Assembly (NCBI GenBank): GCA_903870015.1
Contig: CAIQBE010000042.1
Coordinates: 27,443 to 91,442, forward strand
Origin: an uncultured Thiotrichales bacterium
GTDB taxonomy: Bacteria > Pseudomonadota > Gammaproteobacteria > Francisellales > CACEW01
Reading direction: 5' to 3'
Length of the DNA stretch: 64,000 bases
Shown here piece after piece: positions 13,826 through 60,200 of this stretch. Numbering within the stretch: the stretch's first letter is position 1; each line of letters begins with the position of its first letter. Position numbers and translations under genes: made by a program. The notes under the pieces are model-generated. The model was given only the letters and a program-made list of their open reading frames with translations, was not told the DNA's origin and did not search any database.

Positions 13826-13844
13826 ACAAAACAGGAGATGATTA

Positions 13845-14405: not shown

Positions 14406-14426
14406 TTCTTATTTAGTTGAACCTTT

Positions 14427-14458
14427 AAAAAGCCCCGAATTCGGGGCTTTTTTATTTT
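14427..14458 (+). terminator. rho-independent terminator after pal
   Basis: The hairpin AGCCCCGAATTCGGGGCT is followed by a T-run (TTTTTTATTTTT). Confidence 0.8.
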
Positions 14459-14538
14459 TACCACTATTATTTTTACCACTCCTTGCACAATCATATCAAT
14501 GCTACTAGAATATCTAAAACATTTGATCACTGACTGTT

Positions 14539-15363: not shown

Positions 15364-15476
15364 GGTTCATTGAGAATAACCCCACCCCCTGTACAACACA
15401 TATAACATCAGCCATAGATGCATTAAACAACTTGTATAATACAACCTGCAACATAAGGTTAGTTAGGTTAGGTTAA

Positions 15477-17969: not shown

Positions 17970-20114
17970 ATGCTAAGTTTGCTTATCGTTGTTCTTGCTT
18001 TATGTTTATGCCTTTATGGCTCTTTGCATATTTGGCCTAACCGTAGTGCCTGGCTTTTGCTGCAATGGCATAACCGTCAACATTATCGTGTGCATTTTCA
18101 GGGCGCTGATTATAGGCTTGATAACGCGATGGTGATGATTGCGCGCGCACCCAATGTACGCATGGCCTGCTTACTCAAGCGCTTGACGCCAGTACCGGTT
18201 TATTGTCTGAATCAAGAGATTCCTCATTCAAAACTATTACAGCGTTTTCTAAAACACTCACATATTCACTTTATCACCAGTGCAGAACTTTATAAGCTGC
18301 CTAAACCTGGCTTGATTCTTATCAGCACCGATGATTATGAGGCCGTACAAAAACTGCAGTTGCCGCTCTCTTTGGCTTATCTCGCCGGCAGTGCGTCTCC
18401 TTGTCACACACGCATGCGTTTTAGCCCTCGGGATTTACAATTATCACTACAACGTTTTCATGAAGGTGAAACTAGCCTTGATATCGCTTTGCAGCGTTTA
18501 TCAGTGTATGCGTGGGAGCACTATGTCGATAAACTGCCCTCGATTATTGATTCCTGGCTGGATCAGGCTAAGGCCTTGGGTTCACGCCTCAGCGTTGCCG
18601 ATTCAACGGGTTTACAGCTTTCGCATTATCGCTTGATGGCTAGTGTTATTACTTTGCATACGAAACTCTTTAGCCCTTTATCTGACTCTAATCGTGTCGG
18701 TATTTGCCTGCCCAATAGCGTTGCGGGCACCGCGGCTTTATTAACTTTATTTTCTTTGGGCAAGACTGTTGTTACGATTAACTATACCGCAGGCATTGCT
18801 GCGCTTAGGACCGTTATTGAAGACTCAGGGCTTACCACAATCATTACCTCTAAACTGTTTGTGGCAAACCTGCGGAAGAAAGGCTTTCCCATTGATGACA
18901 TGTTGACGCTTGTGGCCCCGATTTATCTTGAAGATCTTAAAGCTAGCATGACCAAGCATGAGCTTTTAAAAAATTATCTGCTGGCTCGCTTTGCCCCTAC
19001 GGCGTTTTTGCGGGCGATTTTAGTACCGCCTGTAGCATCAAATCAGGTCGCAGTGATTTTATTTAGCAGTGGTAGTGAGGGCAAACCCAAAGGCGTTGAA
19101 CTCACGCATAAAAATATTATCGGCAATGTACGCCAAGTCTCTGAGGTCTTAGAGGCCCATGCTAATGATGTATTATTATCTGTGTTACCTACGTTCCATG
19201 CCTTTGGCTTAAGTGCGGCAATGCTCTTGCCGCTCATGGAGGGCATCAGTATTATCTCCCATCCTGACCCAACCGATACCGCCACTATTGGCGCTTTGGC
19301 CCAGCAATATAAAGCTACCGTGCTCTTTGGCACCTCAACTTTTTTGCGCCTGTATGCTAAAGCTAAAAATATCACACCTGAGATGTTTACTAATTTACGT
19401 GTTGTGGTTGCCGGTGCAGAACGCTTATTGCCCGAGGCGCGGTGTTTGTTTGAAGAGAAATTTAAAAAAGTCATTTATGAAGGTTATGGCACGACTGAAT
19501 TAAGCCCCGTTGCGAGCGTTAATTTACCCGACACGCCCTGCCAAATTCGCCAAAAAATTGGCTCTGTCGGTAAAGCCATTGCTGGCTGCATGATTCGCAT
19601 TATTGATCCTGAAACCGGTGTGACCTTGCCTCAAGGCGAGGCTGGTTTAATTTTGGTAGGCGGTGTCAATGTGATGAAAGGCTATTTGAATCATGATGAC
19701 AGCACTAATGCCAATATTTTATACGAGCATGGCATTCGTTGGTATAAGACTGGCGATAAGGGCCGCCTTGATGCCGATGGCTTTTTAGTTATCGCCGATC
19801 GCTATTCCCGCTTTGCCAAACTAGCCGGCGAGACAGTGAGCTTAGGTGCGGTCGAACAGCAAATCACAATGCTAGTGGCTACCCCTGAGCTTGAGCTTTT
19901 AGCCGTTGCCATTCCAGACCCCAAAAAAGGCGAGATGATTGTATTATTGCACACAAACGCGATTAGCTCTGATGAGTTGCGACAAAAAGTAGATCAATCG
20001 AATTTGCATAATTTGCAGAAGCCTTCAAAATATTTACAGGTCGAGGCAATTCCTAAGCTAGGCGTCGGCAAAACCGACTTTGCGGCGGCAAAGGCGCTTG
20101 CTTTTAGTACATAA
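17970..20114 (+). CDS. Aas-like acyl-[ACP] synthetase / AMP-dependent ligase with a degenerate N-terminal acyltransferase-like domain
   Basis: The C-terminal ~500 aa carry AMP-binding motifs (ILFSSGSEGKPKGV, EGYGTTE, YKTGDKG) and are collinear with E. coli Aas from memory. The N-terminal region aligns to the PlsC-like domain but lacks HX4D at the expected place. GAGGAG RBS. Confidence 0.75.
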   Translation: MLSLLIVVLALCLCLYGSLHIWPNRSAWLLLQWHNRQHYRVHFQGADYRLDNAMVMIARAPNVRMACLLKRLTPVPVYCLNQEIPHSKLLQRFLKHSHIHFITSAELYKLPKPGLILISTDDYEAVQKLQLPLSLAYLAGSASPCHTRMRFSPRDLQLSLQRFHEGETSLDIALQRLSVYAWEHYVDKLPSIIDSWLDQAKALGSRLSVADSTGLQLSHYRLMASVITLHTKLFSPLSDSNRVGICLPNSVAGTAALLTLFSLGKTVVTINYTAGIAALRTVIEDSGLTTIITSKLFVANLRKKGFPIDDMLTLVAPIYLEDLKASMTKHELLKNYLLARFAPTAFLRAILVPPVASNQVAVILFSSGSEGKPKGVELTHKNIIGNVRQVSEVLEAHANDVLLSVLPTFHAFGLSAAMLLPLMEGISIISHPDPTDTATIGALAQQYKATVLFGTSTFLRLYAKAKNITPEMFTNLRVVVAGAERLLPEARCLFEEKFKKVIYEGYGTTELSPVASVNLPDTPCQIRQKIGSVGKAIAGCMIRIIDPETGVTLPQGEAGLILVGGVNVMKGYLNHDDSTNANILYEHGIRWYKTGDKGRLDADGFLVIADRYSRFAKLAGETVSLGAVEQQITMLVATPELELLAVAIPDPKKGEMIVLLHTNAISSDELRQKVDQSNLHNLQKPSKYLQVEAIPKLGVGKTDFAAAKALAFST

Positions 20115-20163
20115 ATCTGGCATCGTTAATAGCATAAAGTATCATTTAGCTTTGAGGGATAAC

Positions 20164-20712
20164 ATGAAACCTGAGATTCAACTTAACCCTGGCGAAACAC
20201 TCTTATATGAAACTCAACCCAAGCAGGTGCTTGCTACATACAACATTCTGTTCTTGATTTTGATGCTGCCTGTTTTTATGCTTATGGGTTGTATTGCCGT
20301 CTATTTAAAGTATTCCGCTGCAGTGTTCTCTGAATCATTATCCTACTCCGTTACTCTTGCTCATGCGGATGGAGCTCTTATCATAGAAACCTTTATAGTC
20401 ATTCTGATTTTTGTATACTGTTGGCTAAACTTAGCGATTAAGAAATATTGGTACTTCATTACGAATGAGCGCTGCATCAAATTTTCATATTTTGGGGGAG
20501 TTAACAAACAAATCGTTTTGTTCAGTGATATTGTCGATGTCGATATTTCTCAAAATATGTTGCAAACTCTCTTCGGGATACGCTCAGTTATTATTAATGC
20601 GCCTGTGATGCGCCCAGCTGGCAAAGTTGTTATTGCTGGACTCACCGCTGAATCTGCGGAAAAAATCTCGAATATCATTGGCGAGCAAATGCGTGCTGCG
20701 TCCAAGAAATAA
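20164..20712 (+). CDS. bacterial PH (bPH_2/YdbS-like) domain membrane protein, paralog 1
   Basis: Start at ATG 20164 (GAGGGA RBS). N-terminal LNPGETLLYETQPK, two TM helices, then KKYWYFITNERCIKF...VDVDISQN, typical of bPH_2. Confidence 0.7.
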   Translation: MKPEIQLNPGETLLYETQPKQVLATYNILFLILMLPVFMLMGCIAVYLKYSAAVFSESLSYSVTLAHADGALIIETFIVILIFVYCWLNLAIKKYWYFITNERCIKFSYFGGVNKQIVLFSDIVDVDISQNMLQTLFGIRSVIINAPVMRPAGKVVIAGLTAESAEKISNIIGEQMRAASKK

Positions 20713-20785
20713 CTACTTAGCGCTTGCTTTTGGTCCATAGATCTGGCATCTTTGTTTATAATATGTCAGAAACTGAAGGGGCAAC

Positions 20786-37293: not shown

Positions 37294-40200
37294 ATGGTTC
37301 AGCACGAAGATATTTACTGTGATCTTAGCCTCAACGGCATGCTATTCGATGATTGCGAGCTTAAAGCCCTAAAGATTACCACGGCTTTGGATCGGCCTTT
37401 TGTGGTACAGATCACGTTGCTATCACACCAGGCTTTGCGTTTTTTTCAACAAAATATCTTCAATCCCTTTACGCTTAAAATTAGTGGTCAGGATTTTTCT
37501 GCGTGTTATTTTGATGGTGTGCTTACCCAGGTGCGCTTCAGCGGCTACCATTGCTATGATTTATGCATAGAGCCAGCTGTAGCCTTGTATCGCGATGAGA
37601 CTTATCAGCATCTTTTTAATGGCGTCTCGGTGCTTGATATCGCCAAGCAAATTTTATGGGGACGGCCATTTAATATCCCCGCACCGATGTTTCAGGCTTA
37701 TGCAATTAAGCTCATGGGCGATCGGGATTATCCTTTGCTCTATCGGGTCTTGATACGTGATGAAACTATGCTTGGATTTTTGCAAAGGATCTTGAGTTAT
37801 CAAGGCTTGGCTTATTATTTTGATTATAGCCTTGAAAAATCACCCCTGATTATCACCGACTGTGTGAATCATTTTGCTGGCAATATTGATGCCGCCTATT
37901 CTCCGAACTCGCCGCATGCGCTAACGCTTAAGCCTTATATCGAAACAATTATTTATAAAAAACTAGGCCTGCCACAGAATGTTTTAAGCTCAGGTGCGCC
38001 TACGTTACAACCCAATAATTTAGTCGCAGAGACGGCTGAGGTTTTAAAGAACAATGCCCCTAACACGCTATATCATGTCAATACCAATGAGCAATCAGAT
38101 CGCAATGCCAAAACTCGCGCTGACATTACTCGCCTTGCACTCTTGAGCCAACAACATACCGCGAAAATGCTAGGTGGCGGATTATTGTTTGCAGGAATGA
38201 CAATTAATGTCCATGGTGCTTGGTTAATTCGCGCAAGCGAGATTGATATCACTTTTGATGAGCATCATCCCGAGCGCTTGGGTAGTATCGCAACGACAAT
38301 TTCTGTGCAAGATGCCGCCGTACGTTATCAAGCCATGCCTCAATTTGGCGAGCATGCCACGCTCATGGCTGGTATTAAAACCGGCACGCCCGGCACTGAA
38401 ATGGGTGTGAATTTAATGAGCGTAAATGAGCAAGGGCATTATCATGCAACCCTCCCATCTAATATTAGCAGCAATAGTGAAGCACATGGTGTGCATATTT
38501 TTGATACCCGCATGGTCCAGCCGATGCATTCTGATGATCATCGCAGCCATATGACCCTGCCGACCAATAGCGAGGGTGCGATGCTTTGGTCTGAGGGTTT
38601 TAGTGGCGAGCCACTTTTGCTTGGCACGCTCAATAATCTTAGCAATATCCACCCAACTACCAGCCGCAATCCTCAAAATGCCTATTGGCAAGATAACGAC
38701 ACCAACAAGCTCGCCTTTATCAATCATGGCACGTATGAGCCTTATCAAAAAACCGGCAGAAAAACTGCCACAATTTTGGAAACGCCTTGCTACGATCTTA
38801 AGCAGAACCACAGCTATGTGCGTATGGGAGATAAGATTGATCATGATATCGCGCATCCAGCACAAGAGGCCGAGCCTGGGTTGTTTTTGCATACTTCGGG
38901 AAACTATCATGAACAACATCATGGTGGCCTGCTGATGCTGTTGGGCAATCTTTATCAAGACCCACAAAAAAGCGGCTTTACCCCAGTCTTGCGTCATATG
39001 GTGCAATTGGCCCAGGCTCTTAATGCTTATCATATTTTACATTCTGTGACAGCACATTTTCAGTCAGAAACGCTCACATCCAGCGGCGTCACTGAAACAC
39101 ATACGCAGGATGCGACTACGATTAACAAAACCCTCACTGCCACTAATAATTTTCAAAATTATCATGCCAATACGGTGGATAATGTTTATGTGAATCAACA
39201 ACATCAGACTCAAGGTGATACTACATCAAAAACTTTTAATACCCACGTTTTAAACACTACCAGCAATACAACCACATTGACAGAATCTGGTGATCATACG
39301 ACTGAAAGCCATGATAAGCATACGCTGAACTTAAATCATCTGAATAACCAATTCATGACGACCACGCAAAAGACTACGATCCATACACAAACCACGCAAA
39401 TAAACACCTTGAGCCAAAATTTTAGTGAGTATTCAGCGCAGGTAGACCGGCTTAATATCAATAGCGCGCATACCCTCATGACGGCTAACACCGCGGCGCT
39501 CGGGGGGGCGAATTTTTATCAGGGCGATATACTGTCGATTGGCTCTGACGCCCAAGCACCCGATACTCCAGCTATGGTTGATCTTAATCAAAATGGCGCT
39601 AATGCGATTAGCGATGAACAATCTACGATTAAAAAAGCTATCGTGTTTTTGCTGGATTGCCCAAATCACTCGCCACTGTTGCAACTGTGCGTGAACCATC
39701 TCAACCCGCAAACTATTCCGGCTAATAACCCATTTATCTATCCACTCACCCATGAGCAAAAGCGTGGTGCAATCACCCTAACTACGCAATTCAAGCAAAA
39801 AGCCGTTCACTATACCCTGCACCCACAAATTCGCAATATCAACCTGCAATATAAAGCACCCATGCAGCAAAGCAATCCATGGTTTACGCCCGAGGGTAAG
39901 CTGCCGACATATATGGGTATGCGCGCCTTATCATCGCACCAGGGCACTGACTTTAGTGATGCTGATCAAAATATTGTGATGCTGAAGGCTGATAGCACCC
40001 CGCCAGCCTCTTGCCTAAAAGGCGGCGGCTTTCATGTAAATTCTGTTGATAATAATACGATTGCTTGGCTGATGCAGCAGCTTTACAAAATTAATAAACA
40101 TTATACCTATGGCGCGAACAACCAAGACCAAACCTGGCAATGGAGCCCACCTTCAACCTCCGATTATATCGGCCTTGCCGAAAAAGGCGTCACCACTTTT

Positions 40201-40839
40201 GCCCTGAAATATAATCGCGAATTTGTTTTGGAATTTTTTAATAAAGGCCATTTTTATCTTAAAGAAGTGCGCGGCGAATGGATGCTAGTGTTTAAAGGCG
40301 CGGCCAATACTCGCAAATGGATTCGCGGCACGACCTATTCTCTCGACAATCCAAAAGTCGCAATCTTCAAAACTTATGCGCTGGCACAAGCACCCGAAAG
40401 CATCTTAAGAAAAAGCACTGATTTAGCCAAAGATGCCGCTGCTGACACTCCTATGAATTTTATTCTAGTAGCACCGATTGATGCCGTGCAGTATTTCTTT
40501 TTTGATGATGATCCGCATAAGCAAATGAGCGATCTTTTGGTGAATATTGGGGTGGATTTGATTAATGCAGCAATTGTCGGGATTTTGGTGGCGTTGATTG
40601 GATTTTTTTTCTCGGCCGCTTTTGGAATTGGACTTGGGTTGATTGTTATTCTTGGCGTGCCTGCAGCAGCTCTTGCTGGCTGGATCTTAGAAACCGCTGA
40701 AGAAAATCTCGGCATCAAAGATAAACTGATTGAAATGGGACGCTCAGCTCAAAATCTGTTTTCACATCTCAACGATCAGCTAAAATTTGATTTCCCAGCA
40801 TTTGCAAATACTGCAGCACAAACTTTAACGGCAGCATAA
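37294..40839 (+). CDS. vgrG: evolved VgrG-like spike protein (gp27/gp5-like) with a large C-terminal extension ending in two membrane helices
   Basis: The N-terminus follows the VgrG/Phage_GPD pattern (FDGVLTQVRFSGY...LCIEPAVALY...FNGVSVLDIAKQIL...IRDETMLGFLQRILSYQGLAYYFDY). A gp5 OB-fold signature is present (TRMVQPMHSDDHRSHMTLPTNSEGAMLWSEGFSGEPLLLGTLNN). A Thr/His/Asn-rich beta-helix-like region covers aa ~590-740. The C-terminus has LINAAIVGILVALIGFFFSAAFGIGLGLIVILGVPAAALAGWIL. Confidence 0.8.
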   Translation: MVQHEDIYCDLSLNGMLFDDCELKALKITTALDRPFVVQITLLSHQALRFFQQNIFNPFTLKISGQDFSACYFDGVLTQVRFSGYHCYDLCIEPAVALYRDETYQHLFNGVSVLDIAKQILWGRPFNIPAPMFQAYAIKLMGDRDYPLLYRVLIRDETMLGFLQRILSYQGLAYYFDYSLEKSPLIITDCVNHFAGNIDAAYSPNSPHALTLKPYIETIIYKKLGLPQNVLSSGAPTLQPNNLVAETAEVLKNNAPNTLYHVNTNEQSDRNAKTRADITRLALLSQQHTAKMLGGGLLFAGMTINVHGAWLIRASEIDITFDEHHPERLGSIATTISVQDAAVRYQAMPQFGEHATLMAGIKTGTPGTEMGVNLMSVNEQGHYHATLPSNISSNSEAHGVHIFDTRMVQPMHSDDHRSHMTLPTNSEGAMLWSEGFSGEPLLLGTLNNLSNIHPTTSRNPQNAYWQDNDTNKLAFINHGTYEPYQKTGRKTATILETPCYDLKQNHSYVRMGDKIDHDIAHPAQEAEPGLFLHTSGNYHEQHHGGLLMLLGNLYQDPQKSGFTPVLRHMVQLAQALNAYHILHSVTAHFQSETLTSSGVTETHTQDATTINKTLTATNNFQNYHANTVDNVYVNQQHQTQGDTTSKTFNTHVLNTTSNTTTLTESGDHTTESHDKHTLNLNHLNNQFMTTTQKTTIHTQTTQINTLSQNFSEYSAQVDRLNINSAHTLMTANTAALGGANFYQGDILSIGSDAQAPDTPAMVDLNQNGANAISDEQSTIKKAIVFLLDCPNHSPLLQLCVNHLNPQTIPANNPFIYPLTHEQKRGAITLTTQFKQKAVHYTLHPQIRNINLQYKAPMQQSNPWFTPEGKLPTYMGMRALSSHQGTDFSDADQNIVMLKADSTPPASCLKGGGFHVNSVDNNTIAWLMQQLYKINKHYTYGANNQDQTWQWSPPSTSDYIGLAEKGVTTFALKYNREFVLEFFNKGHFYLKEVRGEWMLVFKGAANTRKWIRGTTYSLDNPKVAIFKTYALAQAPESILRKSTDLAKDAAADTPMNFILVAPIDAVQYFFFDDDPHKQMSDLLVNIGVDLINAAIVGILVALIGFFFSAAFGIGLGLIVILGVPAAALAGWILETAEENLGIKDKLIEMGRSAQNLFSHLNDQLKFDFPAFANTAAQTLTAA

Positions 40840-40857
40840 TTAACATCGAGGACTTTT

Positions 40858-41628
40858 ATGACGACATGCAACCACTCATTATCTGTTAAAACTTTTTTGA
40901 TCCTGCCATTCCTTTGGCTAGTCATCACTATGCCCCCAACTTGTATTACTTGGTGGCATGGTGGCTCAGTCTACTTTATTTATCTGCTTTCATTGATTAA
41001 TCTTGTCGGCGCATTATTTGTTTTTAAGAACTATAAAAACTACTATTTATTGATGTGCGTTCTTTTTATTGTTAGCACTGCCTTTAATCTTTTTGGAATC
41101 TTACTCCTTTTTTTCCCGGCGCTGAATGCTCATACGCTTATCTTCCTTTATTTACCACCAACTACTAGCTTGATTATGCTCGCGCTCTTACTTTCCCCCT
41201 TTGCTGTTTTTGCCACTCTGAAAGCCTTGACTATTGATTATGACGCTATGAAGCGCGAGGCCTATAAAAATGGCGCTATTGATAAGCTAAACAGTTTGTT
41301 AATTTTTGATAATCGTCGCAGTTACGTCGCGAGAATCAGGTTTAAAAACATCTTTTCCCCCAAGCATCGCAACTGGATGAAACCCACAATAGTCACTTCG
41401 GTTTTATTAGTATTTGGCCCCATTGGCGCGCTAGGAAGTTCGATGGCAAGAAACGGCAACTCAACGTTTAACGCCCTATTTTTTCTGATTGCAGGTTCTA
41501 TCTTCCTATGGTGCGCTTATTTCTGTGCTGTTAGTGCTTATGCGCAGTATCAGCTGATCAAAAAGATTGAACAAGATTTGCGGGTTGCGTTGAAGCCTGT
41601 GTTTAAAACATCTAGCACGCCGTCCTGA
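40858..41628 (+). CDS. polytopic membrane protein (candidate cognate immunity or partner of the VgrG C-terminal domain)
   Basis: 256 aa with about 6 TM segments. It starts 18 nt after the vgrG stop with a GAGGA RBS. No recognisable family. Confidence 0.6.
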   Translation: MTTCNHSLSVKTFLILPFLWLVITMPPTCITWWHGGSVYFIYLLSLINLVGALFVFKNYKNYYLLMCVLFIVSTAFNLFGILLLFFPALNAHTLIFLYLPPTTSLIMLALLLSPFAVFATLKALTIDYDAMKREAYKNGAIDKLNSLLIFDNRRSYVARIRFKNIFSPKHRNWMKPTIVTSVLLVFGPIGALGSSMARNGNSTFNALFFLIAGSIFLWCAYFCAVSAYAQYQLIKKIEQDLRVALKPVFKTSSTPS

Positions 41629-41835: not shown

Positions 41836-42387
41836 TTAGACTATATTACAGTCATTAGGACCTGGCCGTTTTGGTGGTCCTCCCCGCTGCACTGCTATTG
41901 CTGCCGCCACCGGCAATGCGGTTTCCGGCCTTGACACTGCTGGCTCTGCTCGTGGCAAGACCACTCTTGATGCTGCAGGCCTTTTTTCCAAAGCAAAATG
42001 AATATTTTGCGTAATCAATTCAGCATCCCCTATTATCAGAATCTCTCTAGCCTTTTTTTCTTCAATTTCTGCTGTAACTTTTGCTAAAAGCTCTTCAAGC
42101 ACTGAGAATCCACCCTCTGCATCAATTGCTGCACAGCTTTCGGGAAAGTGAGAAAGATTAGCCATCACTTTTGCTGCCATTAGCTGAACATAAGAATCAT
42201 CTGACCCCAAAACCCTCACGAGCGGTCCAACCACCTTTGCCGCTATGATTGCATGGCAATCAGCCTTACATCCAGAATGATTCAGGAGTTTTCGCACTGC
42301 ATTTTTCTGTTGATCCAAGTCCTCTAAATCCTTTGATATTTTCGAAAAATCCACTGCCTCGGCTATAGCACTTGATCCATCATACAT
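41836..42387 (-). CDS. armadillo/HEAT-repeat-like protein
   Basis: 183 aa. The segment CHAIIAAKVVGPLVRVLGSDDSYVQLMAAKVMANLSHFPESCAAIDAEGGFSVLEELL follows the ARM consensus (aI.eaG.i.pLv.lL.s.d..vq..Aa.alsNl.....c..i...gg...L..lL). The C-terminal tail is Pro/Ala-rich. Confidence 0.6.
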   Translation of the reverse strand: MYDGSSAIAEAVDFSKISKDLEDLDQQKNAVRKLLNHSGCKADCHAIIAAKVVGPLVRVLGSDDSYVQLMAAKVMANLSHFPESCAAIDAEGGFSVLEELLAKVTAEIEEKKAREILIIGDAELITQNIHFALEKRPAASRVVLPRAEPAVSRPETALPVAAAIAVQRGGPPKRPGPNDCNIV

Positions 42388-44775: not shown

Positions 44776-45093
44776 CTACGCAACCGCTTTCAACTCAACC
44801 ACAAAGTGCATGCCATCTTGGTTCAGCGCATCTTGCAATGCCAAGGCAATAAACTGCTCCTCCGAATATCCAAGCTTTTGTGCAAACTCCTTGGCTTTTT
44901 TAGGGCTCAAGCTCTTACGACCACGCTCTAAATCGCACAAGTACTGGTTAGAGATATTCAACTTTTTCGCAAAATCGACTTGATTAACATCATCACTCGT
45001 ACGAATCGCCCAAAGTAAATTAGCAATCGTCAAGGTCTCGCCCGTCATTTTTTCAAGATCTTTGAGCGCTTTGCTCTTTTTTCTAGTAATCAT
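44776..45093 (-). CDS. higA: HigA-like XRE-family antitoxin
   Basis: 105 aa with an HTH_XRE core (VNQVDFAKKLNISNQYLCDLERGRK). It is downstream of, and overlaps by 11 nt, a RelE/HigB-like toxin gene. Confidence 0.75.
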   Translation of the reverse strand: MITRKKSKALKDLEKMTGETLTIANLLWAIRTSDDVNQVDFAKKLNISNQYLCDLERGRKSLSPKKAKEFAQKLGYSEEQFIALALQDALNQDGMHFVVELKAVA

Positions 45094-45364
45094 GCTTGTT
45101 GACCTCTACTATTTTGATCAAATGAATCTCACCGGTTGCAGTAATTTCATATATTGCCCTATAGGCTTTATTCAAACGGATTGATCGCTGTCCCTTCCTA
45201 TTTCCTTTCAATGGCTCATCGTGAAAACTAGGAATTTTTCGGATTTCAAGTAATCCAATCCGCTCAACCATATCAATCCAAACTTGTAACTTCAATTTAA
45301 TTTGATGCGGAACTTTCTCTAAATCCCTCTTTGCTTGTTTGGTCAGCTCTATTTCGCACTTCAT
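45083..45364 (-). CDS. higB: RelE/ParE-superfamily toxin, HigB-like
   Basis: 93 aa. The pattern LTKQAKRDLEKVP...GNRKGQRSIRLNKAYRAIYEI...IHLIKIVEVNKHDY is typical of RelE/HigB toxins. The toxin-first gene order is as in higBA. Confidence 0.75.
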   Translation of the reverse strand: MKCEIELTKQAKRDLEKVPHQIKLKLQVWIDMVERIGLLEIRKIPSFHDEPLKGNRKGQRSIRLNKAYRAIYEITATGEIHLIKIVEVNKHDY

Positions 45365-48085: not shown

Positions 48086-48820
48086 TTAAAGCCACTCCCG
48101 CTCGCCGTCTCCGTGGGCCAGGCTTGTTCCATAATGGAGTTTTTCCACTCGCTCAATTTCTCTAAATGTTGCCGCAATATCTTCCTGAGCCAGCGCTAGC
48201 GCCTTATCAATGGACATCTGCTTTTCAAACCCATAAAGCTTAACAATTTTCTCTAATCGCTCTTCAATAGACCCTCCAATAATTGTATATTTAATATCAA
48301 GTTCGTTCAAGGTTTTGATAAGCAGCTCATCTGACAGCGCTCTAAATCTTTCAGAAACAGGACGATGCCCATCAGCCACTAAGGGAAACTCAATCGGCAA
48401 ATGAATGAATTCGCTGTAGGTGCTTTTGGCATAATCTCGTGCAATCGCACCAAAATTTACCATCATATCTTCAAAAAATAATACTGAATCTGTTCTTGGA
48501 ATATCAAAGTCCTGCCCTTCTTTAGGATGCATGCCTACACGCACCCGAACCATGCCATAGACCCACTCATGCAAGGCTGAACCATCAGAAACAAAAGTGC
48601 TTAAGTGACTCTCTTTGACAGACCGCTCCATAATGCGCCGTATCGACAAATGCATTAACTCCCCCGGAGAACAGCCTTCAAGTGTTTTGCCAGGCAGTGC
48701 TATGGGCAAGATTTCCCGCATGGTTTTTGCACGTGTTGCGGTAATGCCAACCAAGTGCGACAAGGCCAGTGTTGTTGTCGTTTTCCCACTAGAGTAGGTC
48801 CCTGATATTGCTAATTTCAT
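48086..48820 (-). CDS. P-loop ATPase (AAA_28/NadR-like)
   Basis: 244 aa. Walker A at the extreme N-terminus (ISGTYSSGKTTT). AAGGGA RBS. Confidence 0.65.
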   Translation of the reverse strand: MKLAISGTYSSGKTTTTLALSHLVGITATRAKTMREILPIALPGKTLEGCSPGELMHLSIRRIMERSVKESHLSTFVSDGSALHEWVYGMVRVRVGMHPKEGQDFDIPRTDSVLFFEDMMVNFGAIARDYAKSTYSEFIHLPIEFPLVADGHRPVSERFRALSDELLIKTLNELDIKYTIIGGSIEERLEKIVKLYGFEKQMSIDKALALAQEDIAATFREIERVEKLHYGTSLAHGDGEREWL

Positions 48821-48853
48821 AATGTTTTCCCTTTGTTTGTTAAAAAATAAGTT

Positions 48854-49825
48854 TTAATTAGGCAGCGCATGACCCAGCCCATAAAAAACCCTCATATCAC
48901 CCATAACTCCTTCGATATTGACACACCGCCAAGGAGCTCCCTCTATTAAAATCTGCTCACTTCTTATCACATTTATCGATGCCAATCCCCCATTACTTTT
49001 AGGAGTGTTATCTCTAGAGAAAGTCATCCCTCGCATCCATAATGTAGAACTATTAGCACGTGATATCCCATCTAATAGGTACAAATAACATTGCCCCAAC
49101 TGAGATAGCACTACCATCGCATCAATAGGTGATGCGCCTTGCCCTATTAAGGTCTCCATACCTTGATAGGCTGCACGCTCCGCGAAAGCACTCTCCACCT
49201 TAGCGGTCACTGAAGCGGCATCTAAATCAACATCCACTTCCGTAATGTTATGCGTCACATTCGCAAAACCCGTGCCATAAAAATTATTGGTTGGTTCACC
49301 TAAAATAGTATTGATCGTATCGTAGTGCAGCCCCTCTTTTGGAATGAGGTTTTGATGCTCTCTTAACGTGGGCAATTGCAGCTCGAGCACCACCACCATT
49401 CCACCTATATGACTTTCAAAAGAGACAACCGAACCTTCGGTTGTCAATAAAGTCGTAGTCGCTTTAAAATTCTCTAAATTTTCTAAAGGCTCCTTGCCTG
49501 CTTTCATGGTGAGTGAAACGATAGTGATTGCTTTACGCTTCAATGTCGTAAGCCCGCGTGATATGACACAATAAGCCTCGCTTAATTGCAGGGCAATTAA
49601 TGCTGCATCCACACTACTCAGATGCACTTTTTGATGGGTACTGCCCTTAGTCGACCAATTTTCAGGAATAGCCACACAACACATCGCCTCTGCTCCTGAT
49701 GCAGTTATCATTATTTCTTTGATTGTTCGCACGGCACGTTTATACCCATTAGAAAAAAAACGTGTACTCTTGTCCCCTAAAAAGTCATCAATATTCGCAA
49801 ATTTTGTACGCATCATAGTCCTCAT
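48854..49825 (-). CDS. hypothetical protein of the ACP/KAS III operon
   Basis: 323-aa ORF starting 6 nt after the KAS III gene. No motif I can name. Confidence 0.55.
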   Translation of the reverse strand: MRTMMRTKFANIDDFLGDKSTRFFSNGYKRAVRTIKEIMITASGAEAMCCVAIPENWSTKGSTHQKVHLSSVDAALIALQLSEAYCVISRGLTTLKRKAITIVSLTMKAGKEPLENLENFKATTTLLTTEGSVVSFESHIGGMVVVLELQLPTLREHQNLIPKEGLHYDTINTILGEPTNNFYGTGFANVTHNITEVDVDLDAASVTAKVESAFAERAAYQGMETLIGQGASPIDAMVVLSQLGQCYLYLLDGISRANSSTLWMRGMTFSRDNTPKSNGGLASINVIRSEQILIEGAPWRCVNIEGVMGDMRVFYGLGHALPN

Positions 49826-49831
49826 TAAAAG

Positions 49832-50824
49832 TTATATTTCAGTCACGCCCATTAATCGAGTCTCGCTCAAATTCATTGCCATACTGCCCCACGACAATCC
49901 CACACCAAATCCAGAGAGCACCACTTGCTCTTTGGTTTTGGCTGTAAAACTTTCGCGCTCATGGCATAAAGCCAAGGGAATAGAGGCGGGCCCCGTATTA
50001 CCATAATGCTTGACCGTAATCGGTACCTGCTCTTTACTAAGCGCTAATTTTTTACGTAAATAGTCGAGGATAAACTGATTGGCCTGGTGTAATGCAAAAA
50101 TACCCACTTCCTCTTTAGCCCAACCCATTTGCGCAAGCACGGAATTAATAGATAGAGGGACTTCACGTAAGGCAAACTCCATAATTTCAGAGCCATTCAT
50201 GTGCAGATAAGCATCTCCACCCTCTTTGGTTTTATCAATCATGAGGTGTTGAAAACCCGTGCCATCGGTCATGATATTAAAAGCGATATCATGGGTGCCT
50301 TGCTCTACAATGGTTGCCGCACCCCCATCACCAAATACTAACCGTACCTTTTGATCATCAGGATTAAGGTATTGGCTAATGGTATCGCCTACACAGATCA
50401 GCACCCGCTTGCAGCTGCCCGAATTAATCAATAGTGAAGCTTGATATAACCCATAAATATACCCAGAGCATCCATAATTAATATCAAGAGCAATGGCTGT
50501 TTTTGGGAGCTGCAACTTACCTTGTAAAATACAGCTTGTGGCCGGCATTTTATAATCGGGTGTTTGTGATACAAAAATAATGGCATCGACGGATTCAGGA
50601 GCTATTGCTAATGCTGCCATCAAATTTCGCGCCGCCTCTAGACAAAAATCAGATGCCTTTTGATGCGGTAAGGCAATGCCCACAGATTCAATACCCGTGC
50701 TCATCATGACCCGTTTAATTTCATTTAGACCAAACTTATCTTCAAGCGTTGTTAGATCTAATTTATTTTTAGGTATCACGGCAGAGATGCCTTTAATCGC
50801 CAAATTTTTGAGCCTAATGTTCAT
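49832..50824 (-). CDS. beta-ketoacyl-ACP synthase III (FabH-like)
   Basis: 330 aa. Cys-His-Asn triad contexts: NYGCSGYIYGL, ALHQANQFIL, HYGNTGPASIP. Confidence 0.88.
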   Translation of the reverse strand: MNIRLKNLAIKGISAVIPKNKLDLTTLEDKFGLNEIKRVMMSTGIESVGIALPHQKASDFCLEAARNLMAALAIAPESVDAIIFVSQTPDYKMPATSCILQGKLQLPKTAIALDINYGCSGYIYGLYQASLLINSGSCKRVLICVGDTISQYLNPDDQKVRLVFGDGGAATIVEQGTHDIAFNIMTDGTGFQHLMIDKTKEGGDAYLHMNGSEIMEFALREVPLSINSVLAQMGWAKEEVGIFALHQANQFILDYLRKKLALSKEQVPITVKHYGNTGPASIPLALCHERESFTAKTKEQVVLSGFGVGLSWGSMAMNLSETRLMGVTEI

Positions 50825-51072
50825 CCGTTCAGTCCTTTGGTTGCTAATCTCTGCTTAATGAGGTCAAAAATATCGCCTACTGTTTTACATTGTTCTACCT
50901 CAATTCCCTTCACCATGACTTGATAGTGACGATCAATCACTGCAATCGTTGAAACGATGGAAAGTGAGTCCCAGAGCTGCGCACCCTCAAGTAGAAACCC
51001 ATCCGTTAAGGTGTCAACCTTCACTGCTAACAGCTTTGCTAATTCTTGTAAATATTGTTGCTTTTCCATCAT
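50821..51072 (-). CDS. acyl carrier protein
   Basis: 83 aa with a phosphopantetheine attachment motif (WDSLSIVS). 4-nt overlap with the KAS III gene. Confidence 0.8.
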   Translation of the reverse strand: MMEKQQYLQELAKLLAVKVDTLTDGFLLEGAQLWDSLSIVSTIAVIDRHYQVMVKGIEVEQCKTVGDIFDLIKQRLATKGLNG

Positions 51073-51089
51073 ATACTCCCCTGTTTTAT

Positions 51090-52427
51090 TTATAGATTTC
51101 TCATTTTTTTAAAGCGCTGACCATGAAACGTGTGTTCAACAAATTCTATCTTTTGCGGAATCTTGTATGCGGGTAATTGCGTTCTACAAAAAAATATCAG
51201 CTTGGTTTTAAATTCTCCCGGATCAAAACCGCTTTTTACTCTTACTTTTACCGCAACGATATTTCCTAAAATGGCGTTGGGCTCACCGCTTACGACAGCA
51301 TCTTCAATGCCTTCCATTTTTAATAGCACATTTTCAATCTCACCGGGGTAGACTTTTTCTCCTCCGACATTGATAACATCACTTTTTCGGCCTAAAATTT
51401 TAATGTAGCCATCTTGCTCCATGACCATGTCACCGGTTTTAAACCAACCGTCTTCGGTATAGGGCGATGGCGCATTTAAATAGCCGAGCATGCCATTTTC
51501 CAACTTCACTTCTAACATTCCATCGTTGATCCGCACGCGCTCAGGATCCTCATCTAACTTGATAAATAAAGAATCTGATGCTTTTGATTTAGCCTTTAAA
51601 ACACCGATTTCTGAAAGACCATAAGCCTGAAAAAATCTAACCTCTGGGAAAGCAGCATTTAATCGATGCAGTAATGATTCTGGCATCGGCTCACTGCCAT
51701 AATTAACAATTTTCAATGAATGTAAGTCATACTTTTCATGTGCCTGACTTAATAACAATAAGTTTAAAAATGAGGGCGAGGTCACTAACACCTCAACTTT
51801 TTCCGCCTCAACTACCTTCGCAACTGCATCGGTTTCTCGTACCTCGGGAATAATGAGCGTCCCACCACTAAATAAATTACACAATATGGTATTAAAGCCC
51901 CCGATATGATCAAAGAGTAAAAAAGAAATCGTTCTAAATGCTGTTTTCTTTTCGCGAAAGTTCATGAGCAAGTTATTAAAATCATGGATGATGGCTTTGC
52001 TTTTGCCACTCGATCCCGATGACATGATGATTAGGCCCGGATGATTCTCTTTTCTTAAGCGCATGACTAAATCATGTTGGAGCCGATACTGTAGTGGCTC
52101 AATGGCAAATTGTGCATCATGAAAAGTAACGACATATTCTATGCCCACGATGGCCTGATACTCCTGCTGTTTTGCGGGAACTACATTGGTCATCGGCACA
52201 ATGATGCAGTTAGTATTGGCTAAAGCAAACAACATCGCTACCGAATAAGGTGAAAAATCAGCATTGATTTGGACAATAGCACCGGATGAGATCCCCTGAT
52301 TTTGTAGTGTTGCTTCATACTCAGCTATTTTTTTGCTAAGCCACGCATAAGAAAAGTGCTCTCCCTGGCTCACAATCGCCGTTTTATCAAATTGTTGAAA
52401 TCCTGCGATGAAAGTTTGCACGTTCAT
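51090..52427 (-). CDS. AMP-dependent synthetase/ligase (probably carrier-protein-loading)
   Basis: 445 aa with adenylate-forming motifs IIMSSGSSGKSKAI, YGLSE, FKTGD and a C-terminal GEKVYPGEIE. It is flanked by ACP genes. Confidence 0.85.
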   Translation of the reverse strand: MNVQTFIAGFQQFDKTAIVSQGEHFSYAWLSKKIAEYEATLQNQGISSGAIVQINADFSPYSVAMLFALANTNCIIVPMTNVVPAKQQEYQAIVGIEYVVTFHDAQFAIEPLQYRLQHDLVMRLRKENHPGLIIMSSGSSGKSKAIIHDFNNLLMNFREKKTAFRTISFLLFDHIGGFNTILCNLFSGGTLIIPEVRETDAVAKVVEAEKVEVLVTSPSFLNLLLLSQAHEKYDLHSLKIVNYGSEPMPESLLHRLNAAFPEVRFFQAYGLSEIGVLKAKSKASDSLFIKLDEDPERVRINDGMLEVKLENGMLGYLNAPSPYTEDGWFKTGDMVMEQDGYIKILGRKSDVINVGGEKVYPGEIENVLLKMEGIEDAVVSGEPNAILGNIVAVKVRVKSGFDPGEFKTKLIFFCRTQLPAYKIPQKIEFVEHTFHGQRFKKMRNL

Positions 52428-53128
52428 GAAACTCCTCCCAAATAAATATTTTGACCTGTGACAAAATCACTTTCTTTTTTGATGTAAAAATCAATTGTGT
52501 TGGCCACATCCTCAAAAGTTCCCATTCTTGGGATAGCCTGCCGGCTAATTAATCTCGACATTTTCTCTTTTGGGACCGAACGAATTAAATCCGTTTCAAT
52601 GGGCGTCGGACCGATGGCATTTACGGTAATTCCTAGGGCAGCTAATTCACGCGCCATGACTTCAGTCAAGGATTTAATCCCTGCTTTTGATGCCGCATAA
52701 ATAGCTTCACCCTCTAGCTTTAATGGCGTTGCGACCGTCGTGAAATTGATGATGCGGCCATAACGATGCTTTGACATTAGTTTTGAGGCTTCTCGGCAAA
52801 ACAAAAATGTACCCACAACATTCGTTCCTAAAATGTCATTTACCGTCGATAGTGGTGTGAGCGCGATATGATTCATCGATGCAATGCCCGCATTATTGAT
52901 AAGATTGTCTAATCGCCCATGGGTCTTACGAATATATGAAAAAATTTTCTTCACGGCAGATTCATCGGTCACATCGGCAATGAAATGTTGATATCCGACA
53001 AGCGACCAATCAATATCAGAGCGACTGCAACCAATCACAATGTGCCCTTGCCTCACATAATGCTCGACGAGATAGCGACCAATGCCTTTGCGTGTACCAG
53101 TAATGAGTGTGATGGGCTTCTTAGTCAT
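52424..53128 (-). CDS. short-chain dehydrogenase/reductase (FabG-like)
   Basis: Start at ATG 53128 (MTKKPITLITG). TGxxxGIG cofactor motif (TGTRKGIG), NNAG, and catalytic YAASKAG. Confidence 0.88.
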   Translation of the reverse strand: MTKKPITLITGTRKGIGRYLVEHYVRQGHIVIGCSRSDIDWSLVGYQHFIADVTDESAVKKIFSYIRKTHGRLDNLINNAGIASMNHIALTPLSTVNDILGTNVVGTFLFCREASKLMSKHRYGRIINFTTVATPLKLEGEAIYAASKAGIKSLTEVMARELAALGITVNAIGPTPIETDLIRSVPKEKMSRLISRQAIPRMGTFEDVANTIDFYIKKESDFVTGQNIYLGGVS

Positions 53129-53426
53129 GATGATTGCCCTCAACTAGCGTTTGCAAATAGCTGGATAATGTACCTATGGTTAAGAAGGGGCTATTACGTT
53201 GTGACATGGCTTTTTCATTGGCAAGAATGATCGACACCCCAAACTGATCCTCAATTTTTTGCTCAACATTCACAATCAGTGAAACTAATGAGATAGAATC
53301 TAATACCCCGTGTTTACCATAGATGGGGGCATCACCTCCAAACTCTGTATTTATTGGCGTGTCTAAGGTTTGGTTTAACTCATTAATTGCGTCGATGACG
53401 ACTTGACTATACTCATTGGCTAACAT
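53121..53426 (-). CDS. acyl carrier protein
   Basis: 101 aa with a phosphopantetheine attachment motif (GVLDSISLVS). It is the first gene of the operon. Confidence 0.8.
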   Translation of the reverse strand: MLANEYSQVVIDAINELNQTLDTPINTEFGGDAPIYGKHGVLDSISLVSLIVNVEQKIEDQFGVSIILANEKAMSQRNSPFLTIGTLSSYLQTLVEGNHHD

Positions 53427-56354: not shown

Positions 56355-57278
56355 ATGTCTCATGGCCCCGAGGCCCCTCAGTACCTGCACTCTTATGGTG
56401 ACGCAACCGACCTTGGTGAACTTGAGGTCGAACGGTTACGACTACTTAACACTGCCTATAGCCCAACGGCACATGCGATGCTTGCGCCTCATTTAAAGCC
56501 AGGAATGGAAGTATTAGAGCTAGGTGTGGGGACAGGTGAAATTGGTAGCTGGTTAGCCGAAAAGGTTGGTGCAGAGGGTAAATACATTGCCATAGATAAA
56601 GATCCGCAACAACTAGCAAAAGCAGCGCGCCTCATTCATGGCTCTCAAGTGCACCTTATTGCTGCAGATGCTCTACGCCTCAGCGATTCCGCAGAATTTT
56701 CTGCCCAGCGACCTGCAGAAGGCTTTAATCTTGTCTATTGTCGCTGGTTCCTCTGCCACATTACAGAAGCCCAACGCACAAAATTAATTCAACATATTAT
56801 GTCACTGCTCGCTCCCAACGGTGTATTTATCTGTGAAGAGCCTGACTATCGAAATATGCGCCTGAAGGAAAGAGGCGCCATAACCCCTAGCCCAGCGATA
56901 GATAGCTGGAAAGATATTGTTAAAGGCTTGCAAGCAAAGCCTAGCTTAGGCCTTGATTTAGAAATGGATGATAGCAAATTGACGGCTGAATTACAGAAAG
57001 CCATTTTAGGGCATGCCGGTTATCATGCTGAAATTATCTGTCGGTTTGAGGCCGAATTAACTAATGGCCAGAAACATGCTTTGGTTCTAGGAATACAAAC
57101 TGCTGCCAAAGCAATTCTTTCTCTTGGAAAAGCACCAGCAGATGTTGATACTTTGTTGTCCCAACTTCGAATCATAGAGAGCAATCCCGATCAAAGTGTT
57201 GTATTTTATACTAATACTTTTGCCAAACTAACGAGATCGGTAGACTCGATGACTGCAGCACTCCCCTTACCTACCTAA
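56355..57278 (+). CDS. class I SAM-dependent methyltransferase
   Basis: 307 aa with motif I VLELGVGTGEIG and an acidic post-I residue (AIDKD). Its 3' end overlaps the NRPS 3' end by 12 nt, convergently. Confidence 0.8.
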   Translation: MSHGPEAPQYLHSYGDATDLGELEVERLRLLNTAYSPTAHAMLAPHLKPGMEVLELGVGTGEIGSWLAEKVGAEGKYIAIDKDPQQLAKAARLIHGSQVHLIAADALRLSDSAEFSAQRPAEGFNLVYCRWFLCHITEAQRTKLIQHIMSLLAPNGVFICEEPDYRNMRLKERGAITPSPAIDSWKDIVKGLQAKPSLGLDLEMDDSKLTAELQKAILGHAGYHAEIICRFEAELTNGQKHALVLGIQTAAKAILSLGKAPADVDTLLSQLRIIESNPDQSVVFYTNTFAKLTRSVDSMTAALPLPT

Positions 57279-60200
57279 GGTAGCTTCGTGTAAAAACTTA
57301 GCTTGTTCAGCAATACTATGCCGAGATAGTAGATCAGACATTTTTATGACATACCCAAGTTCGATTATTTTACTGAACAGCCTAATATAAAGCATAGAAT
57401 CTCCACCCAAATCAAAAAAACTATCTGTGGGCTGGATTTCATCGATCCCCAGTAGCTCATGCCATATATCCATTAATTTCGCCTGAATCTCTACGTGATT
57501 GGCACTGACTATAGATTGGCTTGGCAATAATACCTCAGAAAGTACCGGTTGATCGACTAAAGATGAAATAGCTACGTCAGCATCTGCCTCTATGACCTGA
57601 TTAATATCTAACAACATCGGTACAAAATTTTCTTGTCGACTCACACAACAAAGAAACTGTTCAGGTCGCCCAGGGTGAAGCACCATAAAAGCCTGTAAAC
57701 CCATTTTTTGTATTTCATCATGTAGCACCGTGAGATCGCCCCCCTCCTCCATGCTATAGAGCCGTGTATTTGTCAGACCGGTAATAATCAAACTGCCTTG
57801 GACAAAAGGAAGCTGCGACATAAGCCACTCCCTTAATTGACTTAATGAGCTCCATTGTGCCCCTTTAAATACAATAGGGGGCCCTCGATCCGCTTCAACC
57901 TTATTGGCTTTTGGCAATACATGCAAGGTTGCAGTATATCTAAAATCTCGTAACTCATTACTAAAATGCATTAGTTTCGGTTCAAAGAGTGGCACCAGAC
58001 TGAACGATGCTTTTTGAATAATTTGCATAATAAACCGAGGGCTCACAAACAATTCTTTTTCAAGCAAATGGTAATCATTTAATTGCTTGCAATCATTCAC
58101 GCCCTGCGCACATTTGGCTTGCCGTACATACTCATAAAAACAACCTTGCCAGTCTGCGTGCCGCAAGTCACCCAAAATAATTCGCCCTCCCTGAGGGTTC
58201 AGCAAAGCAATTGCTTGCTCCAATACTAATTCAAAATATTCAAGACTCGGAAAATATTGCACCACAGAATTCAGTATAATAGTGTCAAATGTCCCGGGTA
58301 GAATATTAAGTTCATCTGCGGCTAATACCTTAAACTGCGTGTCTTTATCTTGATACGTCGAGGCCAGTTTTTCGATCACCGCTGCTGAAAGATCAACTCC
58401 TAAATATTGGATATATTTTTTTTCCAAGGCCTTCATCACCTGACCTGTACCGCAACCAACTTCAAGCACACGCCCCAATGGCTCCCTTTTTATTTTTGCA
58501 GCAATATCATGCAGCCAATCCTGCATGACCTCAGATGAAAATGGGTGACCATCTACACTATTATTCCACCCCAACCAGGGCTGCATATTCAGATCTGAAA
58601 CCCCATGATATAAATCATCATAAATTGCGCTCCAGTACGCCAGAACTCCTTCATTTTTTTGATTTTGAGCTGAGCTTAGAGACAACAAGACCCTTTCAAA
58701 TGCATTGACAAGCCCAGAGGCATTTTCCCTAGAAAATACGTCCTGAGAGAAAATAAATGTTAAATCTGCCTCATCCTCTGACCACGCTACCTGCAGTTCT
58801 AGATCAAAACGAGCCATTCCATAATCAAGCTGCACCGCCTGAAAGCCCCTCCCATCTTCTGCCCCCCGATCAAAGGCATTAAATACAAACTGTGACAGCG
58901 GCTGAGCATCGGTTAAAAGAGTTGCCCCTACTGCTGATGCAATCTTTGCGAAAGGGATATCACGATACTCCAAGATCATAGTGCTTTTTCTTTTGATTTC
59001 GGCAATCCAATGTTCGGGACTCCACCTATCTGTTTTATGGCGTTGTAGTGCCAGCACTCCAAAATTAATAAATAGTCCTATACAATCCTGCTCTTCTTCT
59101 CCACGCAAAGAAATGGGCAATGCAATTTGCAAATGATCTTCATTGATAAAAGCAAAAAGCACTTTTGCAAAGGCGGCAAGCAAAACTGTATTTGCTGTTG
59201 CAGAAGACTGGGCAGCAAGCTTTTTGAGCGCTACCAATAAGTCTTTATTTAAATGCAATCTTTGCTGAAACCCCTTAAAGGAACGCACCAATGGGGGTTG
59301 TAACGATGAGCGCAAAGTATTTTTTAAACGCTGCAACCCCATTACCTCAATATAATTTTTAACACTTTTCGGATCCACCTCATCATCTACTGCATTTTTT
59401 ACATATTCGAGATAGCTCTTAGGAGCCGATGGAAGTACTCCATGTCTCAACCAATGCTTGAGACGACTTAATAAATTGAGCAAACTGCGCCCATCTGTAA
59501 TAATATGATGCAATACAAGCTGCACATACAGCGAATCAGAAAACGAATGAACTACTACCCTTAGCAAAGGAGGCTCTGTTAAATTGAAAGGAGGGTCAAT
59601 AAACTCTCTCAGGGCACCTAAGAATAAGGCATCATTTGCAATATTTTCCGGCGCCGAATGAGCATATTTTTTTAGCTGAACATGAGGCATTTCCGCCCCC
59701 ACTTTCTGCACAACGCCATGGTTTTCTTCAAAAAACCCAATCCTGAAAAAAGGCTCATTTTTCAGAATTAAATCTAATCCCTGAACCACACTCTCATCAG
59801 AGGTCGGCCATAAAACCTGATATAAAAATGCATCATGATAACATACCGCCTCTGGGAAAAACCGGCTAAATACCCAAATCCCCTTTTGCATGGCAGACAG
59901 AGGAAGGGGCTCTTTATCTAAATTTATCTGCTGCGTAGACTCAACTTCTGGTCGCTCGGTAATAGCTTTTTCTCGAATAATATGTAGCAAATCATCAAAC
60001 CACGGCTGATTTAAAAACTGGGTCAAGGATACTTTAACCCCCAATACCTCATTAACTTTACTGAGCAATTCAATTGCTCGCAAAGAGTGCCCACCATTTT
60101 CAAAAAACGACAAACTCAAATCGATTTGCTCACGCCGTAGAACCTTACACCATATTAATAAAATTTTTTGCACCAAAGGATCTCCTTGATCTGGTTGATG

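Follow-up and report, generated by a model that had tools for sequence, protein, structure and literature searches.

The 64-kb window analysed here (the whole 64,000-nt stretch of contig CAIQBE010000042.1 from an uncultured Thiotrichales bacterium) carries two adjacent forward-strand genes that resemble a type VI secretion system (T6SS) effector-immunity pair. The first, vgrG-tme (37294..40839), is an open reading frame (ORF) of 1181 aa predicted to encode a specialised VgrG that ends in a Tme-family toxin domain, and its start is kept among homologues (MVQHED or MIDHEE). The second (40858..41628) is an ORF of 256 aa for a polytopic membrane protein, a candidate Tmi-like immunity protein. It begins after a gap of 18 nt and has its own Shine-Dalgarno sequence, GAGGA at 40848..40852 on the forward strand, read from the sequence 5 nt upstream of the ATG at 40858. 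An earlier reading, made from the letters and a list of ORFs (hereafter the sequence-only reading), had given both ORFs exactly, with the gap and a ribosome-binding site, and its core proposal, an orphan island of evolved VgrG, effector and immunity gene, was supported by the independent evidence presented below. A promoter-like site on the same strand (TTGACA-17 nt-CATTAT, 37236..37264), located ~30 nt upstream of the vgrG-tme start, matched at 10 of 12 positions in a consensus scan; because such sites were no more numerous regionally than in shuffled sequence, we regard it as a candidate only. GC content at the locus (~42-45%) was like that of the rest of the window.

VgrG delivery part, neck and linker

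By homology, the hub and OB-fold landmarks of VgrG are real, because the protein matched Phage_GPD, VgrG structures in the PDB and, by hhalign, canonical VgrGs. The gp27-like hub domain (aa ~22-306; 37357..38211, forward strand), which the sequence-only reading had named and proposed to check by profile search, was recovered by Pfam Phage_GPD on aa 31-306 with an E value of 2.8e-16 and 60 bits against a cutoff of 30.1. The sole PDB sequence matches of the profile of the protein's clade were T6SS VgrG structures (E 8.5e-13 to 1.9e-7), and these covered ~aa 20-270 only. When the clade profile was compared by hhalign with four canonical evolved VgrGs, the gp27 region aligned with a probability of 99% (E 7.9e-18). 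The gp5-type OB fold (aa ~375-452; 38416..38649, forward strand), which includes NEQGHYHATLP and TRMVQPMHSDDH...LLLGTLNN, aligned with a probability of 92.9% (E 3.8e-7, 77 columns), in register with the Phage_base_V domain of the canonical VgrG-Tme protein P0023. The region gave no Pfam Phage_base_V match at E <= 1, but the hhalign result bears out the OB-fold signature that had been quoted from aa 405-448. Within the clade, no other part is as well conserved as the OB fold (60% mean pairwise identity). Both hub and OB fold are homologous to those of the VgrG/TssI proteins (Pseudomonas aeruginosa VgrG1, PDB 4mtk and 4uhv; Escherichia coli c3393, PDB 2p5z); unlike these, the window protein falls below the NCBIfam TssI cutoff, has no detectable valine-glycine beta-helix and is unlinked to T6SS genes.

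At the position of the usual VgrG beta-helix lies a clade-specific segment, here called the neck (aa 456-745; 38659..39528, forward strand). It comprises a conserved segment (aa 456-580; clade mean pairwise identity 58%) and, after it, one rich in Thr, Asn and His (aa 581-745; identity 42%; T 23%, N 12%, H 7%), and it had no match in Pfam or PDB. The sequence-only reading had taken a Thr/His/Asn-rich stretch at this place for the beta-helical spike. The composition was as described, but the helix itself found no support: hhalign against the helix region of canonical VgrGs returned a probability of 0.1%, and periodicity and repeat analysis gave no periodicity signal in the T/N-rich segment. The full-length AlphaFold2 (AF2) model, built from a 10-sequence alignment, was unusable, neck included, at a predicted local confidence score (pLDDT) of 38.6. 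With no periodicity and no usable full-length model, a beta-helix in aa 581-745 is unproven; the neck could still fold as one, its composition being T/N-rich.

Further downstream, a linker (aa ~776-838, KKAIVFLLDCPNHSPLLQLCVNHLNPQ...; 39619..39807, forward strand) is common to canonical VgrG-Tme and VgrG-PAAR-Tme proteins. The corresponding segment of the profile (positions ~29-99) matched P0023, P0024, P0026 and P0036 directly before their toxin domain. What had been described as an unassigned globular region thus resolved into three parts, namely this linker, a variable segment and the N-terminal half of a Tme-like core (aa ~955-1075).

Toxin domain and downstream membrane protein

On the evidence of profile homology, the C-terminal extension is a member of Tme, a published family of T6SS effectors that disrupt membranes. 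The Tme domain is C-terminal, with an almost invariant DxxK motif, a transmembrane helix and a flanking D, and is fused to PAAR, VgrG or MIX (Fridman et al. 2020, PMC7046647); VgrG-Tme fusions have already been described (PMC7046647). In the window protein the core, located by HMMER, a leave-clade-out profile, reverse jackhmmer and AF2, occupies aa ~955-1160 of 1181 (40156..40773, forward strand), and so stands at the C-terminus, where the definition of Tme places it. It runs from a small beta-sheet motif (FYLKEVRGEWMLVFKG..RKWIRGTTYSLDNPKV) through helices, D1088-x-x-N1091 and a hydrophobic hairpin to an acidic LETAEENLG. The sequence-only reading had placed the domain in no named toxin family, which is now superseded; its suggestion of a membrane-active effector extension gains support from the predicted membership in Tme.

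An exhaustive HMMER search with an alignment of aa 740-1181 found the toxin core in 85 cluster representatives. It was C-terminal in canonical VgrGs with Phage_GPD plus, variously, Phage_base_V, Gp5_trimer_C or DUF2345, it also ended a VgrG-PAAR fusion, PAAR proteins and LysM proteins, and it occurred in many stand-alone proteins of 430-480 aa. The family consensus combines a beta motif, FYxKxxxGxxxxIFKGxxGLR...GTxYxxxNxKV, with LGxDxxK, which is followed by hydrophobic helices up to LDxxD, and so agrees with the Tme domain as published. As a published member we used WP_000908051.1 of E. coli SE11, which Supplementary Data 5 of Fridman et al. 2020 gives as a Tme; its gene adjoins hcp and lies upstream of ykfM. 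A leave-clade-out profile of 73 domain sequences, from which the window protein and its clade were excluded, scored the window protein at 165.3 bits and WP_000908051.1 at 53.8 bits, while 200 composition-matched shuffles reached at most 5.5 bits. Unrelated membrane proteins encoded in the window scored no more than 1.1 bits when the core profile was built from all 84 sequences. In the reverse direction, jackhmmer started from the E. coli protein retrieved the window protein at 120.6 bits, so that homology at profile level holds both ways with a published E. coli member. No Pfam family matched the toxin domain of either the window protein or the E. coli member, and aa 750-1181 had no match in Pfam or NCBIfam, Tme being the sole sequence family matched. 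The C-terminal profile gave no sequence match in the PDB, and Foldseek with the C-terminal model described below gave no fold match.

Two long hydrophobic helices, forming a hairpin (aa ~1078-1108 and 1114-1139; 40525..40710, forward strand), were evident from hydropathy and AF2, in agreement with the sequence-only reading. By hydropathy they make up one unbroken stretch (aa 1080-1135) with a peak of 2.56. The AF2 model of aa 940-1181, made from a 54-sequence alignment (pLDDT 72), predicted a three-stranded sheet, helices and the two long hydrophobic helices (model residues 139-169 and 175-200). SAAFGIGLG, previously put forward as a small-xxx-small zipper, is aa 1107-1115 (nt 40612-40638). 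Since it falls at the turn between the two helices in the AF2 model and its region is variable across the Tme-like family, a conserved zipper is unsupported.

The 256-aa product of the downstream gene has five hydrophobic stretches on the Kyte-Doolittle scale, one of them 66 residues long (aa 61-126). As a stretch of that length fits two or three helices, the ~6 transmembrane (TM) helices proposed by the sequence-only reading are plausible. Tmi immunity proteins mostly have 3-6 TM helices and are encoded directly downstream of Tme, and some groups of Tme-downstream proteins are unlinked to DUF1240 (Fridman et al., PMC7046647). A co-oriented gene for a protein of 232-271 aa was found directly downstream of the toxin gene in all eight full-length loci examined. 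Identity to the window protein was 33-45% within the window's toxin subgroup, and the downstream proteins beside divergent toxin subgroups (P0004/P0005, P0007, P0006) were 22-27% identical to it or undetectable. Such co-conservation and co-divergence with the toxin fits a Tmi-type immunity protein, as judged from sequence comparison, and upholds the earlier suggestion of a cognate immunity gene. Further variation was seen at single loci: L011 has two tandem immunity paralogues (13626-15397) that are 66% identical, the near-identical contigs L001 and L002 (13667-14443) differ in that the immunity gene is truncated in L001 (131 vs 258 aa), and in L014 (6276-7056) a copy is split into 78 and 107 aa. 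The 270-275-aa proteins encoded after canonical VgrG-PAAR-Tme genes are faintly similar to that of the window. No Pfam family matched the 256-aa protein. A short motif, LFFPxxNA, is common to the window protein (aa ~77-91, ~41086-41130) and the E. coli Tmi YkfM (L010 1237-1716), in a pair whose profile comparison is not significant (probability 3.8%).

The closest described counterparts are Tme1/Tmi1 and Tme2/Tmi2 of Vibrio parahaemolyticus (PMC7046647), which share with the window pair a C-terminal toxin in which the motif is followed by hydrophobic helices and an acidic residue. The toxin domain likewise occurs fused to VgrG, fused to PAAR or standing alone, and a polytopic membrane protein is encoded directly downstream. 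The window pair differs in having DxxN for DxxK and E for the flanking D, a longer common core (~200 aa including the beta-sheet motif), a larger downstream protein (256 aa, ~6 TM) with no detectable link to DUF1240, and a highly divergent carrier VgrG. VasX, Tse4, Ssp6, the Ssp4 family, Tke5/BTH_I2691 and TpeX resemble it in the presumed targeting of the inner membrane from the periplasm and in having membrane-protein immunity, but only Tme was matched by sequence.

Relatives and genomic neighbourhood

A search of 5.8 billion clustered proteins yielded no more than nine relatives of the full protein. The ORF stays intact (1181-1216 aa) across lineages only 33-60% identical, and conservation in the clade is lowest at the toxin end (26-32% mean pairwise identity). 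As far as alignments can tell, this is the usual pattern of polymorphic toxins, in which divergence falls on toxin and immunity and the part for delivery is kept. A GTDB scan with the family alignment found four loci in metagenome-assembled genomes (MAGs) labelled Thiotrichales, Gammaproteobacteria, Pseudomonadota and Francisellaceae; the same scan with exact peptides gave no match. A metagenome scan returned just one already known locus, and 2.9 million viral contigs contained no relative.

The linker and toxin module of the window protein recurs in gammaproteobacterial MAGs, in canonical VgrG-Tme and VgrG-PAAR-Tme proteins (P0023, P0102, P0026, P0034, P0036), which have a 270-275-aa membrane protein encoded downstream and, like the window pair, lie outside T6SS clusters. 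These canonical proteins match Phage_GPD at 97-217 bits (60 bits for the window protein) and most carry Phage_base_V, Gp5_trimer_C, DUF2345 or PAAR. The window protein has no PAAR, and its unique 290-aa neck replaces a recognisable beta-helix. The MAG that encodes P0023 and P0102 is not closely related to the window genome (DnaG 40.6% identical). In MAG GCA_030644425.1 (L016, L017), two paralogous canonical VgrG-PAAR-Tme genes that are 70% identical are each followed by a gene for a 270-275-aa membrane protein; both lie outside T6SS clusters and one is flanked by integrase genes.

Some settings of the relatives are distinctive. The VgrG relative of L007 (212-3609; MAG labelled Pseudomonadota) is preceded by two AcaB-like regulators, a single-stranded DNA-binding protein (SSB) and a DsbA-like protein, a setting like that of a conjugative element or plasmid, with no T6SS cluster. 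The short relative P0009 adjoins a DUF2169-pentapeptide protein, DUF2169 being a T6SS-associated family. Near the VgrG gene, L002 (15038-15792), L004 (5432-6105) and L012 (1289-1762) each encode two small proteins, one of 147-157 aa and one of 70 aa, which in L002 and L004 adjoin an S24 LexA-like repressor; the window lacks this pair.

The window itself is ordinary chromosome. It contains the housekeeping genes metG, ruvB, tolQRAB-pal-cpoB, recJ, dnaG, topA and dprA, together with dabAB, fic and transporter genes, and its accessory clusters are a toxin-antitoxin pair, an AvrD/KAS III cluster and a nonribosomal peptide synthetase (NRPS). TopA places the window in a gammaproteobacterial lineage of uncultured bacteria and is ~66% identical to its nearest named relatives, those of Thiolapillus, Aquicella siphonis, Thiohalomonas and the scaly-snail endosymbiont. 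Divergent from vgrG-tme are two unannotated reverse-strand genes for proteins of 717 aa (34249-36402) and 140 aa (36715-37137), both of which have a C-terminal two-lobed hydrophobic hairpin preceded by GWTG; the larger is Ser-rich, with the internal repeat PVV.SAAVEVP.LV.D..ALGASSNV. From their sequences, both look like membrane-anchored effectors. We considered them as conserved partners of the VgrG and rejected this, as no homologues adjoin the other VgrG loci. In convergent orientation to the immunity gene, a reverse-strand gene (41836-42387) encodes a 183-aa protein with a match to the Armadillo repeat, a eukaryote-like repeat, at 22.6 bits (cutoff 20.6). The toxin-antitoxin pair (44776-45364, reverse strand) consists of a HigB/ParE-like toxin (93 aa) and a helix-turn-helix antitoxin (105 aa) and lies between genes for a LysR regulator and a major facilitator superfamily transporter. 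On the same strand, a secondary-metabolite-like cluster (48086-53143) comprises AAA_28, AvrD-like, ketoacyl synthase (KAS) III, AMP-ligase and short-chain dehydrogenase genes, and the NRPS (57267-63974), which exceeds 2235 aa and includes both a luciferase-like monooxygenase and a methyltransferase domain, continues past the window end. Three tandem forward-strand genes (20080-21888) encode small proteins with one bacterial PH (bPH_2) domain each.

A probable effector-immunity module and its alternatives

We read the locus as a two-gene effector-immunity module, in which an evolved VgrG-Tme spike for a T6SS encoded elsewhere is paired with a cognate immunity protein, and we give this reading a probability of about 0.75. 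The sequence comparisons made here show the domain assignments, the toxin's modular occurrence with VgrG and PAAR proteins, and a second gene that is conserved along with the toxin and diverges with it. Published work on the family suggests how the module might act: Tme1 and Tme2 are toxic in the periplasm, where they depolarise and permeabilise the membrane, and only the cognate Tmi neutralises them (PMC7046647). By analogy, hub and OB fold would help to build a trimeric T6SS spike, and a T6SS encoded elsewhere in the genome would fire it into a neighbouring Gram-negative cell. There, the hydrophobic helical hairpin of the Tme domain would insert into the inner membrane from the periplasm, so that membrane potential would be lost and the membrane would become leaky, probably without lysis. 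The second gene would be expressed from the same transcript, given its 18-nt spacing and its own Shine-Dalgarno sequence, and its product would be an inner-membrane protein that protects the producer and its kin by specific neutralisation of the cognate toxin.

Several results weigh against this reading. In the delivery part, the NCBIfam model VI_Rhs_Vgr (TIGR03361) scored 67.9 bits against a trusted cutoff of 186.35 and was matched over model positions 13-279 of 513 only. The usual VgrG beta-helix (Gp5_C, Gp5_trimer_C, DUF2345, VG repeats) was undetected by Pfam, and aa 456-745 did not align with the canonical helix region. In the toxin, D1088 is the D of the motif and N1091 stands in place of the near-invariant K of DxxK, a change also present in the aligned subgroup relatives P0001, P0002 and P0008 at a position where some other profile members vary too; E1133, a conservative change, aligns with the flanking D of LDxxD. 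For the downstream protein, none of the eight homologues matched Pfam DUF1240 at E <= 10, and the comparison with E. coli YkfM was equally negative (hhalign probability 3.8%). As to delivery, the window had been described as free of Hcp, TssA-M, PAAR, contractile-sheath, baseplate and phage-tail genes, and our searches agree: its ORFs of at least 150 aa and 21 intergenic ORFs of 60-149 aa matched no family of Hcp, Tss, PAAR, sheath, baseplate or phage-tail proteins, and the window contained no adaptor gene either. Among the relatives, no T6SS core gene, Hcp, PAAR or adaptor lay within ~10 kb in L001-L005, L007 and L011-L014, save the DUF2169 protein beside P0009.

These points leave room for other explanations, each of which we consider less likely than the effector-immunity module. 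VgrG-Tme may be aimed at eukaryotic membranes, damaging or fusing host or phagosomal membranes, with the second gene serving as self-protection or as a helper. Some evolved VgrGs act on host membranes, and the neighbours of the pair look host-interacting (the Armadillo-repeat protein, the two hairpin proteins and Fic). However, these neighbours are not conserved beside other VgrG loci, and the host-associated lifestyle is itself only putative. A tightly coupled immunity gene that diverges along with its toxin, and at times occurs in duplicate, is the mark of an inter-bacterial toxin, and the Tme members tested so far are antibacterial and act from the periplasm (PMC7046647), which makes a eukaryotic target unlikely.

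A similarly improbable option is that the clade represents a structurally distinct spike for a non-canonical or unrecognised firing machine, or a toxin exported independently of T6SS. We entertain it because the neck is strongly conserved yet unlike known VgrG beta-helices, all examined loci are orphan and the hosts are uncultured Gammaproteobacteria. In a separate explanation, the protein could be the spike of another contractile machine (an extracellular contractile injection system, eCIS, a tailocin or a prophage tail), or a protein of spike fold that is exported by a different route, which the sequence-only reading had offered as an alternative. The Phage_GPD family takes in hub proteins of phages and eCIS as well, no locus has T6SS genes nearby, aa 456-745 is unlike the helices of T6SS VgrGs, and one relative (L007) lies in a conjugative-element-like context. 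On the other hand, the best NCBIfam match and all PDB matches are to T6SS VgrG, the 64 kb contain no sheath, tube, baseplate or phage genes, and the viral contigs yielded no relative. The toxin and linker module is moreover common to canonical T6SS VgrG and PAAR proteins, P0009 adjoins the DUF2169 protein, and the Tme family has been reported as almost exclusively T6SS-linked (PMC7046647), so that we hold another contractile machine or export route to be quite unlikely.

About as doubtful is a stranded remnant, in which the genome has lost its T6SS and the pair is kept for immunity against relatives' toxin or in an addiction-like manner, the toxin itself going undelivered. All examined loci are orphan, L001 has a truncated and L014 a split immunity gene, and 23% of Tme-encoding genomes have no complete T6SS (Fridman et al., PMC7046647). 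Against this, the ORF of 1181-1216 aa is intact across lineages that are 33-60% identical, with the delivery domains most conserved, which argues for selection on a working spike. Finally, the second gene could encode an accessory factor, such as a membrane chaperone or loader that handles the hydrophobic hairpin ahead of export. Hydrophobic effectors linked to VgrG often require helpers, and the protein has no similarity to DUF1240 or YkfM. We nevertheless think this very unlikely, as the described T6SS chaperone families (DUF1795/Eag, DUF4123 and DUF2169) are, to our knowledge, soluble, tandem duplication and toxin-matched divergence are typical of immunity genes, and position, size and topology match those of published Tmi proteins (PMC7046647).

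If the effector-immunity reading holds, a "hypothetical protein" of an uncultured gammaproteobacterium can now be regarded as a T6SS-type weapon of a defined toxin family. In most respects the locus would then be a routine effector-immunity pair, and the oddities that remain are its clade-specific neck, the DxxN variant, an immunity type unlinked to DUF1240 and a consistently orphan placement. The DxxN variant and the larger immunity type extend the range of the Tme family, and the analysis draws attention to a small VgrG clade with a neck domain for which no counterpart is known. Should the host genomes prove to be without a T6SS, this clade would be well suited to testing what use is made of orphan spike-toxin genes.

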